64,000 nt of DNA, from positions 160,001 through 224,000 of the forward strand of contig CAZALK010000004.1 in the NCBI GenBank assembly GCA_964486045.1, given 5' to 3'. Position 1 is the stretch's first letter, and each line of letters opens with the position of its first letter. Of the stretch, positions 19,747 to 26,336 are shown piece by piece. This stretch comes from an uncultured archaeon (lineage in GTDB: Archaea > Asgardarchaeota > Lokiarchaeia > Sigyniarchaeales > SOKP01). The translations under genes and the position numbers were made by a program. The notes under the pieces are model-generated. The model was not told the DNA's origin. It saw nothing but the letters and a program-made list of their open reading frames with translations, and did not search any database.

Positions 19747-20592
19747 ATGATTATTTGGATATTGGAAAGTGATTCTGGAATTAAATTGTTATATAAGTCT
19801 TTTTTAAAAACAGATGCTGATGAGGATATAGTTTCTGGGTTTTTAACAGCCTTCAATCATTTTTCTGTAATGGAGTTTAAACAATCAATAGATTCAATAG
19901 AAATGGGTGGCTTACGATGGATATATATATCAGAACCTAAATATAACCTGCTCTTTGTAGCAGCAGGTACTAAAGAAATGAAAACTGAGATCCTTAAGAG
20001 CAGATTAGTGGTGATAAAAAACGCGTTTATAAAGGAATTTGATAAAGTTTGGGAAAAAAAAGGACATAATTGGGATGGAGATCTTAACATCTTTAACCCC
20101 TTTCTTCAATTGATAACGGATTATTATCATCAATGGAAAGAAGTTGAAAATTTAACTCAAACAGCAGATTTCTTCGATATTTTAGGAATATTCCAAAACC
20201 TTTTTATAATGCTGAGAAATATCGTTGAAAATAAAATGTATAAGAAGTCAAAAAATGAAATACTGGATATTATCAATTCTCATTTTACATCTTATATCAC
20301 CCAAAAAGACTTTAAAGCTGAACCAGAGTTGAAGAATATATCCTTTACAAAAGACGAATGGTTTAACATTATCGATATTAATTTAATTAAATGTGATAAA
20401 GAGCTTGTAATTAATAATCTAAAGCATTTACTTACGCATGTAGTAAAAACATTAAAAGAAGTTAAAGGAAATAATTTGTGTCTGAAATATTTTAGAGAAG
20501 AAAAGATATACGGTTATATTATTAATAATATGACTTTATTAAATGATCTAAGTTTAGATATGTATTTATTGGAACTCTTTTTGCAGCTGTAA
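19747..20592 (+). CDS. Longin-like domain protein with helical C-terminal extension
   Basis: N-terminal pattern IWILESDSGIKLLYKSF..DEDIVSGFLTAF..F, beta hairpin, LLFVA then helix, resembling Asgard longin-like domains. Confidence 0.6.
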   Translation: MIIWILESDSGIKLLYKSFLKTDADEDIVSGFLTAFNHFSVMEFKQSIDSIEMGGLRWIYISEPKYNLLFVAAGTKEMKTEILKSRLVVIKNAFIKEFDKVWEKKGHNWDGDLNIFNPFLQLITDYYHQWKEVENLTQTADFFDILGIFQNLFIMLRNIVENKMYKKSKNEILDIINSHFTSYITQKDFKAEPELKNISFTKDEWFNIIDINLIKCDKELVINNLKHLLTHVVKTLKEVKGNNLCLKYFREEKIYGYIINNMTLLNDLSLDMYLLELFLQL

Positions 20593-21107: not shown

Positions 21108-21314
21108 TTGTTTTAAGGACATAATTTTTAGATTTAACATCTCTTATTTTTCATTAAATTCAAGAAAAATTTGTCTTACTTACTTAATCTAATTATTTTC
21201 ATGAATATAAATATTTAGTGTATAATTTATTCTTTATATAGGAATATCTTGAATTTATACATTAATATCACCATAAAAATAATAAATTATAATACAATAT
21301 TCTTATTAGGATAT

Positions 21315-21344
21315 AAATAATTTCAACCCTAAATATTTTGAAGT
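21315..21344. promoter_or_regulatory. Putative MarR operator, copy 1
   Basis: 22/30 identity to 21873..21902, directly upstream of the MarR start codon. Confidence 0.45.
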
Positions 21345-21350
21345 GAAAAA

Positions 21351-21830
21351 ATGTCTGAAAAAGATTCTACTTGTGAAGATGATACCTGCGAGGTGCTCGA
21401 TTTCTCTAAAATTTTTCAATTAATCAATATTTTAAATAAAAAGTATGATAAGTTGCAACGTAAAATTGTGAAGAATGATAATCTCACCCCACCTCAACAT
21501 TCAATATTAATGCAGTTATGGGATTCTGATGGAAAACGATTTAAAGAATTAGCGTCGGCGTGCTGTTGCTCCCCTTCAACAATAACGGGAATAGTAGATA
21601 CTATGGAAAAACATGATTTAGTTTATAGGAAAAATAATCCAGAAGATAGACGAAGTCTTCTTGTAAACCTTACCGAAAAGGGAAGAGAAATTCAAAAGAA
21701 TACTCAACCAATCAAAATTATTTTAGAGAACTGTTGTGAAGGTTTTTCAGCTGAAGATGTTGATCAACTTACTCATTTATTAAATAAATTGTCTGATTCA
21801 TTTGAAATTAGTGGATTGGATAACTGTTAA
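21351..21830 (+). CDS. MarR-family regulator, Cys-rich (putative arsenite/metal sensor)
   Basis: LTPPQ..IL, HTH, DRRS..V.LTEKG wing motif; 8 Cys including CCC in the HTH region and CC near the C-terminus. Confidence 0.88.
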   Translation: MSEKDSTCEDDTCEVLDFSKIFQLINILNKKYDKLQRKIVKNDNLTPPQHSILMQLWDSDGKRFKELASACCCSPSTITGIVDTMEKHDLVYRKNNPEDRRSLLVNLTEKGREIQKNTQPIKIILENCCEGFSAEDVDQLTHLLNKLSDSFEISGLDNC

Positions 21831-21872
21831 TCATTACTTCCATTTGTGGATTAGAATTTTTAATAAATCAAT

Positions 21873-21902
21873 AAATACTTCGGACCCGAAATATTCGGAA
21901 CT
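21873..21902. promoter_or_regulatory. Putative MarR operator, copy 2 (imperfect palindrome)
   Basis: ATACTTCGGACCCGAAATAT is 16/20 self-complementary and GC-richer than the surrounding spacer. Confidence 0.55.
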
Positions 21903-21983
21903 CTTATATATTAGTATTGATTATTAATAATTAAAATAAATTTTTTCTTAAAACTCAAAAAAATAAATAATCTTGAAAGAAAT

Positions 21984-22127
21984 ATGACAGATCAAAAAAC
22001 AGCAGAATTAATTAAAGTGTACGAGTCGAAAAAAGCGAAGAAAGCACTTTATTCTCAATGTAATACTCACCAATGTTACATTCCTCAGTATAATTTGACT
22101 TATCAAGGATCTTCCTGTCGATGTTAA
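21984..22127 (+). CDS. 47-aa Cys-rich small protein
   Basis: ATG..TAA ORF MTDQKTAELIKVYESKKAKKALYSQCNTHQCYIPQYNLTYQGSSCRC, co-oriented 30 bp before the methyltransferase; below the ORF-track cutoff. Confidence 0.6.
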   Translation: MTDQKTAELIKVYESKKAKKALYSQCNTHQCYIPQYNLTYQGSSCRC

Positions 22128-22157
22128 GATTGTGGGAAAATAATTAAATAGGATTAA

Positions 22158-22973
22158 ATGATAAGACTTATGAAAAGGCAAGGGATTTATAAACCAACAA
22201 TAGAGGATATTATTGAAATAAGTGGTATTGAGACTCTCCACCCTGGAGGTATGGTTTTAACACTCCGAGCAGCTGAATTTGCTGGATTAAAGCCAGGAAT
22301 GAAGGTTTTGGATGTATCGAGTGGTAGAGGTACTCAATCTATTTTGTATGCTAGAGAATTTGGAGTTCATGTTACTGGTGTTGATATTTCGGAAGATATG
22401 GTTAAATCTGCTACGGAGAATGCAAAAAAGGAACAAATGGATGAATTAACTACTTTCAAAATAGGTGATTCTCAAAAATTACCATTTGAAGATAATTATT
22501 TTGATGTAGTTATTAATGAATGTGCTGTCGGAATTCCAGATGATTCTCAAAAGGTTTTGGATGAGATGGTCCGAGTTGCTAAAAATGGAGCATCAATAGT
22601 GATTCACGAATCGACATGGCGTAAAACTATAACCGAAGAAGAAAAGAATGAGATTTCTGAGAGGTATGGTACTACACCATTAGAATATGATGAGTGGATT
22701 TCTATGTTAGAAAAAGCTGGTGTAAGGGAAATTACTACCGAGTTTGATGAATGGTCAAAACCTGAGATGTTTTGGAAAATTCGACAAGATCGTGATGTGG
22801 AAGATTTTTCGAAAATATACACACGTTCTGAATTATCAACATTAATTGGAAGAGTTTCTCAAAAACACGGACAAGAAGGAGTAATGATAGCACTTGAAAA
22901 TCAGAAAAAATTTACACAAGTAGTCCTTGATGGTAAATTGGGCTATGGTTTATTTAAAGGAATCAAAAAATAA
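22158..22973 (+). CDS. Class I SAM-dependent methyltransferase
   Basis: LHPGG, VLDVSSGRG motif I, GVDIS, LPFEDNYFDVV. Confidence 0.9.
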   Translation: MIRLMKRQGIYKPTIEDIIEISGIETLHPGGMVLTLRAAEFAGLKPGMKVLDVSSGRGTQSILYAREFGVHVTGVDISEDMVKSATENAKKEQMDELTTFKIGDSQKLPFEDNYFDVVINECAVGIPDDSQKVLDEMVRVAKNGASIVIHESTWRKTITEEEKNEISERYGTTPLEYDEWISMLEKAGVREITTEFDEWSKPEMFWKIRQDRDVEDFSKIYTRSELSTLIGRVSQKHGQEGVMIALENQKKFTQVVLDGKLGYGLFKGIKK

Positions 22974-23002
22974 CAAAAAGAAAAAAACAAGATGGAACAA
23001 AA

Positions 23003-23971
23003 ATGGTTGAAGAAAATTCTTTAGAAGATGAGAAAATTAGGCAGATAGTAAGAGAACAATATGGAAGGGTAGCCGAAGGGCGATCAGAGAGTTCAAGTTG
23101 TTGTGGTCCTACTGCAAATACAGAAGTCCCCACTAATAGTTGTTGCGGTCCGGCTGCACCTACTGTGAACTTAGAGTTAAACTCCAGCAGTGAAAATGCC
23201 AGCAGTCCTATAAAGATCCCAGCTGATAAATTAGGTAAATTCATGAAAAGTTATAGTTCTCAATTAGGGTACACTGAAGAGGATCTTAGAACTATTCCTG
23301 ATGGTGCTAATCTGGGGCTAGGGTGTGGCAATCCAACCGCACACGCATCTATTCAGGAAGGAGAAACAGTTCTGGATCTTGGAGCGGGTGGTGGTTTAGA
23401 TTGTTTCATAGCAGCAGATAAAGTAGGAAAAACAGGGAAAGTTATTGGAGTAGATATGACTCCTCAGATGATTGATCGAGCTCGAAATAATGCAAGAAAG
23501 GGCAATTATGAGAATATTGAATTTCGGCTAGGGGAAATCGAGAACCTCCCTGTTGCTAATGATTCTGTGGATCTAATTATGTCAAATTGTGTTATTAATC
23601 TTTCTCCTAATAAAGATAGGGTATTTAATGAAGCTTTCAGAGTGCTCAAGCCAGGTGGAAGGATGCTGATTTCAGATATTGTTCTACTAAAAGAATTACC
23701 CGATGTCATCAAAGATAACAAAGAAGCATATTGTGGGTGCATATCAGGAGCAATCTTGAAAAAGCGGTATATAGAATTAATAGAAGAAGCGGGATTTCAA
23801 GATGTTGAAATTATGGAAGAGAGCGATTACTCTACAGTTGATTTTTTACTTGATGATCCAATCGCTGGAGCAGCTTTAAAAGAACAAGGAAGAGATCTTG
23901 AGGAATTGAAAAATCTAGAAGAATACATCACAAATTCAAGTATAAAAGTTAAAGCAATAAAACCAAATTAA
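23003..23971 (+). CDS. arsM: Arsenite S-adenosylmethionine methyltransferase
   Basis: [31 protein letters not shown]; N-terminal SCCGP twice. Confidence 0.92.
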
Positions 23972-24018: not shown

Positions 24019-25047
24019 CTAATTCTTATTACCACAATAAGGACATATTTCGACTTTTAGATCAATCAGGTTTTTACAAAATGAACACTCTAATTGATTG
24101 TCTTTAACATTATCTAAATCCTTACTTTCTAGTGACTCAAGGTGATTAAGGAAATCAGAAATAGTTTGCTTATTAATAATCATATAATCACCATCAATTG
24201 TGAATTCAAACTTCTTAGCCCACTCAAAAATTTTGTCATTAAAACTATGTTTTTCTAATTCTAATGTGGTACGTATCATCTTAAGTTTTAAACGATTCGA
24301 AACTTTTAACATCGTTTTTAATTTTTTAAATTTTTCTTTCTCACTTTTTTTAAATTCTAGGCGTTCGGATTCCTTATACATTTTAGTTTGATTTAATACA
24401 TCATATAGTTTTTCAGTTTTCAACTTATCTTTTCTTAGTTTTCTCCGTTGCATTTTTAAAGGAAATATTGAATAAGTTTTTCCATTTTTTGTTTCAATTT
24501 TTACATACGTGGTTGAACCTTCGATTTCCATTGTTATCTCTCTAAAATCTAAGACATCAATCTTATACATTCCTTCTGAATGGAAAGATTTGAATAAAAT
24601 ATAGTTTTCCGTTAAAAAAAGCTGTCCATGAATCGTAATATCTTTTAAATCATAATTGAGGAGAGAACCAATGTGAAAACTTACTACGGCATCAAATAAA
24701 ATTATTTGATCTCTATTAAAAATTAATCTAGTTAATTGTCTAAACAACTCCATCGTCATTTCTTTGGAAGGACTATAGATATTATTCTTTTGTCTCATGG
24801 GATATAGAGTATAAAATGTATGATGTGGTGTCTCGAGTTCTATTAGTGTAATCTTAAATCTAATTTTCCTTGATATATCTTGAATCTCAGATAGTTTAAC
24901 TTGAAATAGGATTTTATCTACTAATGATTCAAATGAAAGGAAGGTTTCCGTTAGGAAAATAGTTCCTTTGGATTTTTTAGAAACTAAGTGCCTAAACGAA
25001 GGTATTCCTGTGCTGAAACTCCCGTATGATTCAAATAAAGTTGCCAT
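24019..25047 (-). CDS. Protein with two GRAM/PH-like repeats, a helical domain and a C-terminal zinc ribbon
   Basis: Repeated GTIFLTETFLSF / GQLFLTENYILF units; CSFC..CPYC at the end. Confidence 0.55.
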   Translation of the reverse strand: MATLFESYGSFSTGIPSFRHLVSKKSKGTIFLTETFLSFESLVDKILFQVKLSEIQDISRKIRFKITLIELETPHHTFYTLYPMRQKNNIYSPSKEMTMELFRQLTRLIFNRDQIILFDAVVSFHIGSLLNYDLKDITIHGQLFLTENYILFKSFHSEGMYKIDVLDFREITMEIEGSTTYVKIETKNGKTYSIFPLKMQRRKLRKDKLKTEKLYDVLNQTKMYKESERLEFKKSEKEKFKKLKTMLKVSNRLKLKMIRTTLELEKHSFNDKIFEWAKKFEFTIDGDYMIINKQTISDFLNHLESLESKDLDNVKDNQLECSFCKNLIDLKVEICPYCGNKN

Positions 25048-25233: not shown

Positions 25234-25602
25234 ATGGTATCTTTTACATTTGTTGTCTGCGCCGAACCTTATAAGTATGAAGCAATAGATACTGTAATTA
25301 ATTTAGGTGAAGCTATAATAAAAAAGGGGCATGAGATTTTAGGAGTTTTTCTCTATGGAAGCGGTGTATACAATATTAAAAGCAGAGAAATTTCAAGTGA
25401 TTCCCTAAGAGATTTACCAAAGCGTCTGAGGAACTTCTGTAAAATAAATAAAACCATATTAACATCTTGCAGCACATGGATTAGTTTTACTGGCATCCAA
25501 TCACCAGAAATTATTGAAGGGGCATCCCAAGAAGGATTAGGGGCATTATCAGATTTTATTGCAAGATCTGATCGAGTTCTCTTTTTTGGTCCAGGAGGGT
25601 AA
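25234..25602 (+). CDS. dsrE: DsrE/TusD-like sulfur relay protein
   Basis: EPY, GHEILGVFLYGSGV, Cys in TSCS, GLGALSDFIARSDRVLFF. Confidence 0.75.
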   Translation: MVSFTFVVCAEPYKYEAIDTVINLGEAIIKKGHEILGVFLYGSGVYNIKSREISSDSLRDLPKRLRNFCKINKTILTSCSTWISFTGIQSPEIIEGASQEGLGALSDFIARSDRVLFFGPGG

Positions 25603-25608
25603 TAGTTA

Positions 25609-25977
25609 ATGGCAAATTCAATAATTATAATTTGTGAAGACTCTCCATTTGGAAAAGATTCTCCTGTGGAAACTATTCGTATGGCTACGGGGATATTAGC
25701 AATTGGGGATATAGAGAATTGTAAAGTGGTGTTCATGAAAGATGCTTTATACTTTCTTAATAAGAAATTGAATCCTGACGCTTTACAAGTTGATCATTTT
25801 GATAATATAATGAGGTTAATTAAGCTTTCTGGGTTAGAGATTTATGTCCATGATACTGCAATGGAAGTAGCTGGGCTGCTTAGATCAGATCTACTGCCAA
25901 TCGATAATATAAAAATAGTAGGTATAGAGGAAATTAGCCAATTAATATTAGACGCAGATATGAGTTTTAAATATTAG
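25609..25977 (+). CDS. dsrF: DsrF/TusC-like protein
   Basis: SPFG..E.IRMA, VVFMKDALY; middle gene of the triad. Confidence 0.72.
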   Translation: MANSIIIICEDSPFGKDSPVETIRMATGILAIGDIENCKVVFMKDALYFLNKKLNPDALQVDHFDNIMRLIKLSGLEIYVHDTAMEVAGLLRSDLLPIDNIKIVGIEEISQLILDADMSFKY

Positions 25978-25994
25978 AAAAGTGGTGAAAACTA

Positions 25995-26336
25995 ATGGCG
26001 GACAATAATTCCATTGTATATTTATATGGATTTAGCACGGTGTTGGAGTCAAAACTAATAAATTTAATAAAAATTATCGAAAAACAAATTGAGCAAAACA
26101 GTAAAATCAGTGTTGTTTTTATCCATGATGGGGTAATTGGAACTTCTAGTGTAAATAAAGCATCACCATCTATGACAAAGCTATTAAATTTACCCATTAC
26201 GACTTATTCCCTTCTTCCTGATCTTAATGCTCGTGGGATTGATGCAACACAACTTAAAACTAAAATTGTTGGAATTGCTTATGAAGATTTGGTTGACATA
26301 CTAGTTACAAACCCAAAAATAGTATCGTGGATGTAG
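25995..26336 (+). CDS. dsrH: DsrH/TusB-like protein
   Basis: FIHDGV, DLNARG, YEDLVD...SW. Confidence 0.75.
   Translation: MADNNSIVYLYGFSTVLESKLINLIKIIEKQIEQNSKISVVFIHDGVIGTSSVNKASPSMTKLLNLPITTYSLLPDLNARGIDATQLKTKIVGIAYEDLVDILVTNPKIVSWM

Follow-up and report, generated by a model that had tools for sequence, protein, structure and literature searches.

A cysteine-rich MarR-family protein as candidate thiol-based regulator of an arsenic methylation locus in an Asgard archaeon

Introduction

Arsenic methylation in anaerobes is thought to make trivalent methylarsenic (MAs(III)) as a primitive antibiotic, and to our knowledge little has been learnt of how arsM expression is induced in them. Repressors of the ArsR/SmtB family that control ars operons, R773 ArsR with its CxC motif in the helix-turn-helix (HTH) among them, are released by As(III), and their Cys clusters arose at different places of the fold. 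Among MarR-family proteins, AdMarR_ars of Achromobacter deleyi As-55 is a repressor of arsV that is released by As(III) and Sb(III), binds both its own and its target promoter and depends on Cys36, Cys37 and Cys157; other MarR_ars members adjoin arsN or arsP, and neither arsM nor archaea are mentioned in that study (Yu et al. 2021, bioRxiv 10.1101/2021.08.12.456183). Here we describe a Cys-rich MarR encoded ahead of arsM in a 64,000-nucleotide stretch of DNA (contig CAZALK010000004.1, positions 160,001 to 224,000; hereafter the window) from an uncultured Asgard archaeon (Promethearchaeota) of marine sediment, the assembly of which comprises 5.18 Mb with a completeness of 99% and a contamination of 7.8%.

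The original prediction, made from the letters of this DNA, was of a MarR-controlled pathway in which two methyltransferases and a peptide carrier act together. We find that its regulatory part, putative control of arsM by the MarR, is strongly backed by conserved adjacency of the two genes, conserved Cys clusters and a conserved operator at both promoters. On this basis we consider it moderately likely that the locus is dedicated to arsenic methylation under a local thiol-based switch, the MarR acting as a repressor that As(III) or MAs(III) would release.

Results

A MarR gene and arsM form a recurrent pair

All four genes of the predicted set lie on the + strand, co-oriented as claimed. The features of the locus, in window coordinates, are as follows.

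21306–21338, + strand: marR promoter with operator O1; a conserved block upstream of marR in orthologous loci
21351–21830, + strand: marR, Cys-rich MarR-family regulator, 159 amino acids (aa); PF01047 match
21857–21861, + strand: T5 run 3' of the marR stop codon, read from the sequence
21879–21901, + strand: operator O2, TTCGGACCCGAAATATTCGGAAC; its consensus is conserved at 40 distinct loci
21903–21910, + strand: TATA box CTTATATA of the peptide–MT2–arsM unit; invariant TTTATATA in orthologous loci
21984–22127, + strand: micropeptide gene, 47 aa; homologues at the equivalent position
22158–22973, + strand: MT2, class I S-adenosylmethionine (SAM) methyltransferase, 271 aa; Methyltransf_31/11/25 domains
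23003–23971, + strand: arsM, As(III) SAM methyltransferase, 322 aa; NF008823 match

The gaps within the peptide–MT2–arsM unit measure 30 and 29 nt, and the gene 3' of arsM is convergent. The T5 run is a possible archaeal terminator that would split the marR transcript from the downstream unit.

For the comparison of neighbourhoods, the four window proteins were mapped onto 76 loci from species-representative genomes and 80 from metagenomes, and architectures were counted over 37 distinct MarR sequences that are at least 55% identical and have 1.3 kb or more of sequence downstream of the gene. In 34 of these 37 close orthologues, arsM lies 3' of the MarR gene on the same strand, in at least three different flanking contexts. 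The arrangements were distributed as follows.

MarR–ArsM: 25 of 37 loci
MarR–peptide–MT2–ArsM: 4 of 37 loci (the window, L010, L011 and L103)
MarR–peptide–ArsM: 2 of 37 loci
MarR–MT2–ArsM: 2 of 37 loci
MarR–ArsM–ArsM: 1 of 37 loci
MarR without arsM downstream: 3 of 37 loci

The order MarR–ArsM–MT2 occurs in at least one further locus (L020, L115). The full set of four thus recurs beside the window at three loci. As a description of a four-gene unit under the MarR, the original prediction stands for the MarR–arsM core and falls for the peptide and MT2 as fixed parts, these being optional and found in varying orders and combinations. Sequence comparison indicates that the core is a two-gene module, MarR then ArsM, and that only this pair is obligatory. 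The arrangement is far beyond chance, with the gene set and the conserved operator recurring in dozens of independent contigs.

Within a sample of 251 Asgard genomes, an ArsM above the cut-off was found in 124 and this MarR family in only 23, of which 21 belong to the window's GTDB family. The whole-genome search of the Asgard genomes added six co-directional MarR/ArsM pairs and two divergent pairs; in one genome the MarR gene and arsM lie apart. A phylogenetic tree of the MarR proteins resolved three well-supported clades, given here with their support in the Shimodaira–Hasegawa-like approximate likelihood ratio test (SH-aLRT).

Clade 1: Asgard, arsM-linked; SH-aLRT 99
Clade 2: Asgard, linked to a CpaM-like/HgcA-like fusion and an HgcB-like ferredoxin; SH-aLRT 99
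Clade 3: bacterial, mostly arsM-linked; SH-aLRT 96

The bacterial sister clade, drawn from Chloroflexota, Actinomycetota, Nitrospirota, Bacteroidota and unclassified metagenome-assembled genomes (MAGs), is mostly linked to arsM. The genes linked to the second Asgard clade encode, besides the ferredoxin, a 550–560-aa protein in which a CpaM-like methyltransferase is fused to an HgcA-like corrinoid/membrane protein. The window's own genome also encodes such a protein (L094, G000:C16:93019-96336): a 552-aa CpaM-like SAM methyltransferase/HgcA-like corrinoid–transmembrane fusion with the cap-helix motif NVWCAARG, followed by an HgcB-like ferredoxin that ends in CCG, both under the NCBIfam HgcA/HgcB cut-offs. 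In other Asgard genomes, a pair of this type sits 3' of the sister clade of Cys-rich MarRs. An uncultured bacterium of the sister clade carries MarR, ArsM, HgcA and HgcB genes co-directionally (L058:5646-8494), HgcA scoring 430 bits and HgcB 101.7 bits, both above their cut-offs; arsenic and mercury methylation genes there lie behind one MarR.

Several loci depart from the common pattern. In L022 and G204:C38, a close MarR orthologue with operator and TATA box has no full arsM downstream, where a short open reading frame (ORF) resembling the ArsM N-terminus is found instead; the G204 contig does carry arsM, about 78 kb from the MarR gene. In L018:7627-9582, the MarR gene precedes a tandem pair of arsM genes, and a 39-codon remnant between these, 62% identical to the MT2 C-terminus, is a trace of a lost MT2. 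L020 (DATKTW010000167.1), filed under an actinobacterial MAG (Nanopelagicaceae), carries an Asgard-type MarR–ArsM–MT2 set with archaeal TATA box and operator; the contig matches G162 of the Asgard sample and is probably mis-binned.

A conserved operator lies at both promoters

Operator O2 spans 23 bp and consists of three alternating TTCGGA/TCCGAA half-sites, which form two overlapping palindromes of 12 bp and 15 bp. The TATA box of the peptide–MT2–arsM unit begins about 1–2 nt past its end, so that O2 covers the position of the transcription factor B (TFB) recognition element (BRE). In the consensus of the 40 distinct sequences, aTagTTCGGAtCCgAAATaTtCGGAACC is followed directly by TTTATATA, about 45 bp past the marR stop codon in every close orthologous locus, and the sequence flanking this element on both sides is not conserved. 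The 23-mer has a single match in the 5.18-Mb genome, even when three mismatches are allowed. The 12-mer TTCGGNNCCGAA was set aside as a signal in its own right, as it finds at least one match in 49 of 100 shuffles of the window; significance therefore rests on the full 23-mer and its conservation.

The marR promoter region is made up of TTAGGAT (21306–12), the TATA-like ATATAAATA (21311–19) and AATTTCAACCCTAAATATT (21319–37). O1, a weaker copy of the O2 half-site, is located there between the TATA box and the marR start codon, and the O1 and O2 regions together form a direct repeat (D2) with 77% identity over 30 nt. In orthologous marR promoters, the inverted repeat TTAAGGAT-TATA-..ATCCTAAATA brackets the TATA-like box. 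The O2 motif also occurs between the two genes of the divergent MarR/ArsM pairs and in a MarR group at a greater distance. Motifs related to it, of the form TT(C/A)GG-N11-T(N)GG, are present in bacterial relatives, where one overlaps the -10 box ahead of marR and another copy precedes arsM. The BRE-covering O2, the position of O1 between TATA box and start codon and the bacterial -10 sites would all fit a repressor.

The more distant MarR group (L063, L066, L072 and L075–L078) shows about 40% identity and has one or two Cys only. It precedes a 108–118-aa winged HTH (wHTH) protein and a 186–191-aa methyltransferase, and in L072 and L075 the TTCGGNNCCGAA motif lies 3' of marR.

Promoter geometry also bears on whether the MarR could be an activator or a dual regulator of the arsM unit. 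Once loaded with metalloid, it would in that case recruit TFB and the TATA-binding protein (TBP) from a site upstream of the TATA box, and it would repress marR itself. In favour of this, activators of the MarR type are known from archaea, and O2 is placed upstream of its TATA box whereas O1 is placed downstream of its own. However, at a distance of 1–2 nt O2 lies over the BRE rather than upstream of it, the homologous motif overlaps the -10 box in bacterial relatives and the characterised AdMarR_ars is a repressor. We therefore rate activation as unlikely, though the most serious of the alternatives to a metalloid-released repressor.

The MarR carries conserved vicinal cysteines

The regulator belongs to the MarR family, with 67.4 bits against PF01047 (cut-off 24.6) and matches to 86 MarR chains in the PDB; the ArsR/SmtB profile HTH_5 (PF01022) gave no match to it, which places it outside that family. 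An AlphaFold2 (AF2) model, at a predicted local distance difference test (pLDDT) score of 73, has the wHTH fold with helices α1–α6 and a two-strand wing. Eight Cys are present (C8, C13, C71–73, C128–129 and the terminal C159), in the number and places that had been read from the sequence: a CCC in the HTH region, a CC and a C-terminal Cys. In the model, the CCC lies in the turn between α3 and the recognition helix α4, and the CC in a low-confidence hinge between α5 and α6.

These residues are kept among orthologues, many of which are likewise 159 aa long and which share 55–94% identity: C72, C73, C128 and C129 are invariant, C71 is almost so and a terminal Cys is usual, so that the conservation of the MarR Cys, on which the original prediction depended, bears out. 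An xCC at 128–129 is the common denominator of all arsM-linked members, and its partner is either an HTH-turn Cys (as CCC, CxC or xCC) or an N-terminal CC. The As(III) sites of ArsR proteins are known for shifting positions built around vicinal pairs, and we liken the pattern in the arsM-linked MarRs to these.

Sequence comparison with the PDB gave OhrR and MgrA among its best matches, and in the phmmer alignment to Xanthomonas OhrR the MarR C128 falls exactly on Cys127. PDB entries 8XT8/8XTA (MarR) and 8XT7 (ArsM), considered as a solved MarR–ArsM pair on account of their adjacent codes, were rejected: 8XTA is an unrelated redox MarR of C. difficile.

Since many Cys-containing MarRs are redox sensors, these matches raise the question of a general thiol/redox sensor of the OhrR, SarZ or MsvR type, which would respond to oxidants, polysulfide or electrophiles and for which arsM would be one redox-regulated gene. 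The alignment of C128 with the resolving Cys of OhrR speaks for it, but the position of the sensing Cys22 of OhrR is occupied by Ile. Nor would a general sensor be expected from the remaining evidence: the only predicted high-affinity site in the genome sits at the arsM unit; the link to arsM, replaced in sister clades by one to HgcA-like corrinoid methyltransferases, holds in archaea and bacteria alike; and As(III) sites, that of AdMarR_ars included, typically contain a vicinal CC pair. We regard general redox sensing as improbable.

ArsM has the catalytic cysteines and MT2 keeps one of them

ArsM scores 336.5 bits against NF008823 (cut-off 263; 324.9 bits in the genome search) and finds its best PDB matches in the ArsM structures 5evj and 4fr0. 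Its C34, C108 (GCGNP), C196 (SNCVINL) and C246 (GCxxGA) are invariant in nine orthologues and, by alignment to the PDB ArsMs, correspond to the four catalytic Cys of CmArsM (C44, C72, C174 and C224). The duplicated N-terminal SCCGP noticed earlier is present. By these features the protein is a bona fide ArsM, which would methylate As(III).

MT2 possesses a single Cys, C122 in the motif NEC, which is invariant in its orthologues. In an hhalign comparison of the MT2 and ArsM profiles (99.8% probability), C122 stands opposite ArsM C196, the equivalence proposed from the sequence alone, and the other three ArsM Cys have no counterpart. MT2 scores 91.6 bits against the ArsM profile (cut-off 263) and 102.7 bits against the DVU_1556 family methyltransferase NF045667 (cut-off 155), and so belongs to neither family; of the ArsM Cys only the C174 equivalent is present. 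Its true start may be the Met of codon 5. Orthologues are 65–87% identical, with invariant blocks that include HPGG, NEC(122) and IHESTWR, and are sporadic in the Asgard sample (6 of 251 genomes). The predicted fold (pLDDT 74) is closest to TleD, to phosphoethanolamine (PMT) and sarcosine N-methyltransferases and to RebM/AtmM, not to ArsM, and a protein atlas returned generic methyltransferase clusters only.

In 8 of the 9 MT2 loci examined, MT2 adjoins arsM, before or after it. Three MT2–arsM sets (L085, L086 and L087, that is G201:C54, G049:C34 and G150:C153, of the same genus) have no MarR and are headed instead by a 103-aa Cys-rich AbrB-type protein with CxC, CC and CC motifs that passes the HgcC model NF040962 (97 bits versus 70). 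The MT2–arsM operon therefore sits under two unrelated Cys-rich regulators, and this linkage is the best evidence that MT2 may belong to arsenic physiology. That its substrate is of a single-thiol type such as trivalent dimethylarsenic (DMAs(III)) is speculation.

A paralogue of MT2 is encoded elsewhere in the genome (L002, G000:C3:9291-12791). This 272-aa protein is 31% identical and keeps the Cys in an SEC motif; its gene overlaps the stop codon of the gene for a 435-aa radical SAM protein of TrsS/Tes-like type (313.9 and 301.6 bits; below the cut-offs).

A conserved micropeptide follows the operator in a sub-lineage

The N-terminal half of the micropeptide is rich in Lys, and its C-terminal half reads C-x4-C ... 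C-R-C-end. A tblastn search returned one homologue only, and inspection of the gap after the operator brought the number of distinct homologues to seven (the window, L010, L011, L015, L100, L101 and L103). The micropeptide is always the first ORF past the TATA box, with or without MT2; its reading frame and the place of its stop codon are preserved. Other residues can stand in for C31 and C45, while C26 and the terminal Cys are invariant. In the closer pairs, the ratio of non-synonymous to synonymous change per site (pN/pS) is 0.2–0.5. It is probably, on this comparative evidence, a real gene of a sub-lineage. Profile libraries gave no family match and a protein atlas none either; the Pfam family SR1P was tried and rejected (16.8 bits versus 26, under threshold).

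Structure prediction of an ArsM–micropeptide complex gave a median score of 0.40 (runs of 0.54, 0.40 and 0.00; best control 0.00), with runs agreeing in at least 2% of contacts and a partner pLDDT of at least 34. Of 80 solved complexes, 58 reach the mark applied here, as do 2 of 110 mismatched pairs, and scores up to 0.60 include only 7 of the 80 solved complexes together with both passing mismatched pairs. The model thus gives a weak indication of binding, and most weak passes of this kind turn out to be wrong.

With these data, the original prediction can be weighed in full, namely that the peptide is an As(III) carrier feeding ArsM and that MT2 is a second arsenic methyltransferase acting, for example, on DMAs(III) with one thiol ligand. 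The adjacency of MT2 to arsM in varying order under two different Cys-rich regulators would be expected on this model, as would the match of the sole invariant MT2 Cys to the Cys174 equivalent of ArsM, the purifying selection on a micropeptide in a constant position and the weakly favourable complex prediction. Set against this, 25 of 37 MarR loci have neither MT2 nor peptide, the two each occur without the other, and two of the peptide Cys can be replaced. MT2 has no equivalents of Cys224, Cys72 and Cys44, and its fold neighbours (TleD, PMT and RebM) are ordinary small-molecule methyltransferases, because of which two-step arsenic methylation with MT2 is unsupported. We judge the complete model to be quite unlikely. 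More doubtful still is an extended organoarsenical pathway in which ArsM would yield MAs/DMAs(III), MT2 would methylate further (its product may be trimethylarsine from DMAs(III), or of the arsenobetaine/arsenocholine type, given its betaine/PMT-like fold), the peptide would be an As(III) chaperone for ArsM and the MarR an archaeal arsenic sensor with an origin separate from that of MarR_ars. The comparisons instead show MT2 and the micropeptide to be accessories that members of a sub-lineage may carry or lack, both of which track arsM.

Arsenite efflux genes lie elsewhere in the genome

Profile searches of the window for HTH_5/ArsR, Acr3 and ArsC gave no match, in agreement with the claim that it holds none of the three, and no glutaredoxin-type ArsC was found either. 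On another contig (C25; L090, G000:C25:35729-39685), a 116-aa ArsR with a CxC in its HTH is divergent to a 341-aa Acr3-like permease that scores 279.3 bits against a cut-off of 282.8. This pair is the genome's classical arsenite efflux module, located away from arsM, which would be regulated separately. The proposed departure from an ArsR-controlled ars operon is accordingly real for this locus, but it is less singular than it had seemed: As(III)/Sb(III)-sensing MarRs are already published, and an ArsR–Acr3 pair exists elsewhere in the same genome.

Three sets of neighbours are syntenic with MarR–arsM in several related genomes: a 281-aa protein of unassigned family upstream (19747–20592), a convergent GRAM-domain/Zn-ribbon protein (24019–25047) and three DsrE/F/H-like small proteins (25234–26336). 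They are absent from the other contexts and are therefore neighbours by descent, outside the module.

Discussion

In the mechanism that we favour, a MarR dimer would bind O1 and O2 when metalloid is absent, block TBP/TFB or RNA polymerase and thereby repress both itself and the peptide–MT2–arsM transcript. Trivalent arsenic, as As(III) and possibly MAs(III) or Sb(III), would be bound by the vicinal Cys; the likeliest ligands are C128/C129 of the α5–α6 hinge, probably with C159 or an N-terminal Cys, and the CCC of the HTH turn may join. In the metalloid-loaded protein the wings would move, the DNA would be let go and ArsM would be made and methylate As(III). MT2 and the micropeptide, as lineage-specific accessories on the arsM transcript, would act in the same physiological context, and efflux would be handled separately by the ArsR–Acr3 pair.

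Several points count against this proposal. Archaeal activators such as the BldR-type MarRs also bind immediately ahead of the TATA box, and the multiple MarR Cys could instead be ligands of Zn or an Fe–S cluster, or serve to detect oxidants or polysulfide. AdMarR_ars has its Cys at other positions (36, 37 and 157), and a CxC-containing ArsR is already encoded in the genome. For the accessory genes, MT2 retains a single one of the ArsM Cys tetrad and looks like small-molecule N-, O- and C-methyltransferases, and just two of the four micropeptide Cys are invariant.

The locus offers a precisely defined and readily testable candidate regulator–operator pair for an uncultured Asgard lineage. Through it, one MarR family found in both archaea and bacteria is connected with methylation genes of two sorts, those for arsenic (arsM) and those of mercury type (HgcA-like). 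The locus also flags two conserved accessory genes, MT2 and the micropeptide, that travel with arsM. A literature search on MarR together with arsM, arsenite methyltransferase or hgcA found no description of a MarR–arsM module; MarR genes upstream of hgcA in two bacteria are mentioned in passing (PMC10349881).

Comparison with known systems

The window ArsM shares the SAM-binding core and the four catalytic Cys with CmArsM/CrArsM (PDB 4fr0, 5evj); it differs from them in the duplicated SCCGP, an insert of about 35 aa seen in its closest relatives only, and in a short C-terminus of bacterial or archaeal type. HgcC (NF040962), a Cys-rich AbrB-type protein found next to hgcAB, heads MT2–arsM in sister genomes and is in that respect an analogous candidate metal(loid) switch, but its AbrB looped-hinge-helix fold is unrelated and it is absent from the window.

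Xanthomonas OhrR (PDB 2pfb, 2pex) resembles the MarR in that C128 falls on the resolving Cys127 of the α5 hinge. Cys127 forms an intersubunit disulfide, and cross-linking there rotates the wHTH, making it a known allosteric hot spot (PDB 2pfb, 2pex). The likeness ends at the peroxide-sensing Cys22, which is Ile in the window MarR, and the CCC, the CC pair and the terminal Cys are not features of OhrR. ArsR/SmtB repressors have Cys clusters too, including some within the HTH, and belong to a different fold family.

The nearest relative in function would be AdMarR_ars. Both proteins combine a MarR fold beside arsenic genes with operators at their own and their target promoter, a vicinal Cys pair and a C-terminal Cys, and the arsenic gene context of the MarR_ars subfamily is shared by the window MarR, which has arsM beside it at 34 of the 37 orthologous loci. 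Among the 120 best relatives of the bacterial MarR sister clade, no species named by Yu et al. 2021 occurs. AdMarR_ars differs in being bacterial, in targeting arsV rather than arsM and in its promoter architecture; compared by published positions, the window MarR has no Cys at 36–37 and carries its Cys at 71–73, 128–129 and 159. A Cys-rich MarR released by As(III) is thus already known from bacteria, and what is new here is the archaeal host, the arsM target, the placement of the Cys and the promoter architecture. With the sensor principle already on record for bacteria, the locus widens its scope and adds detail but is not of a new kind.

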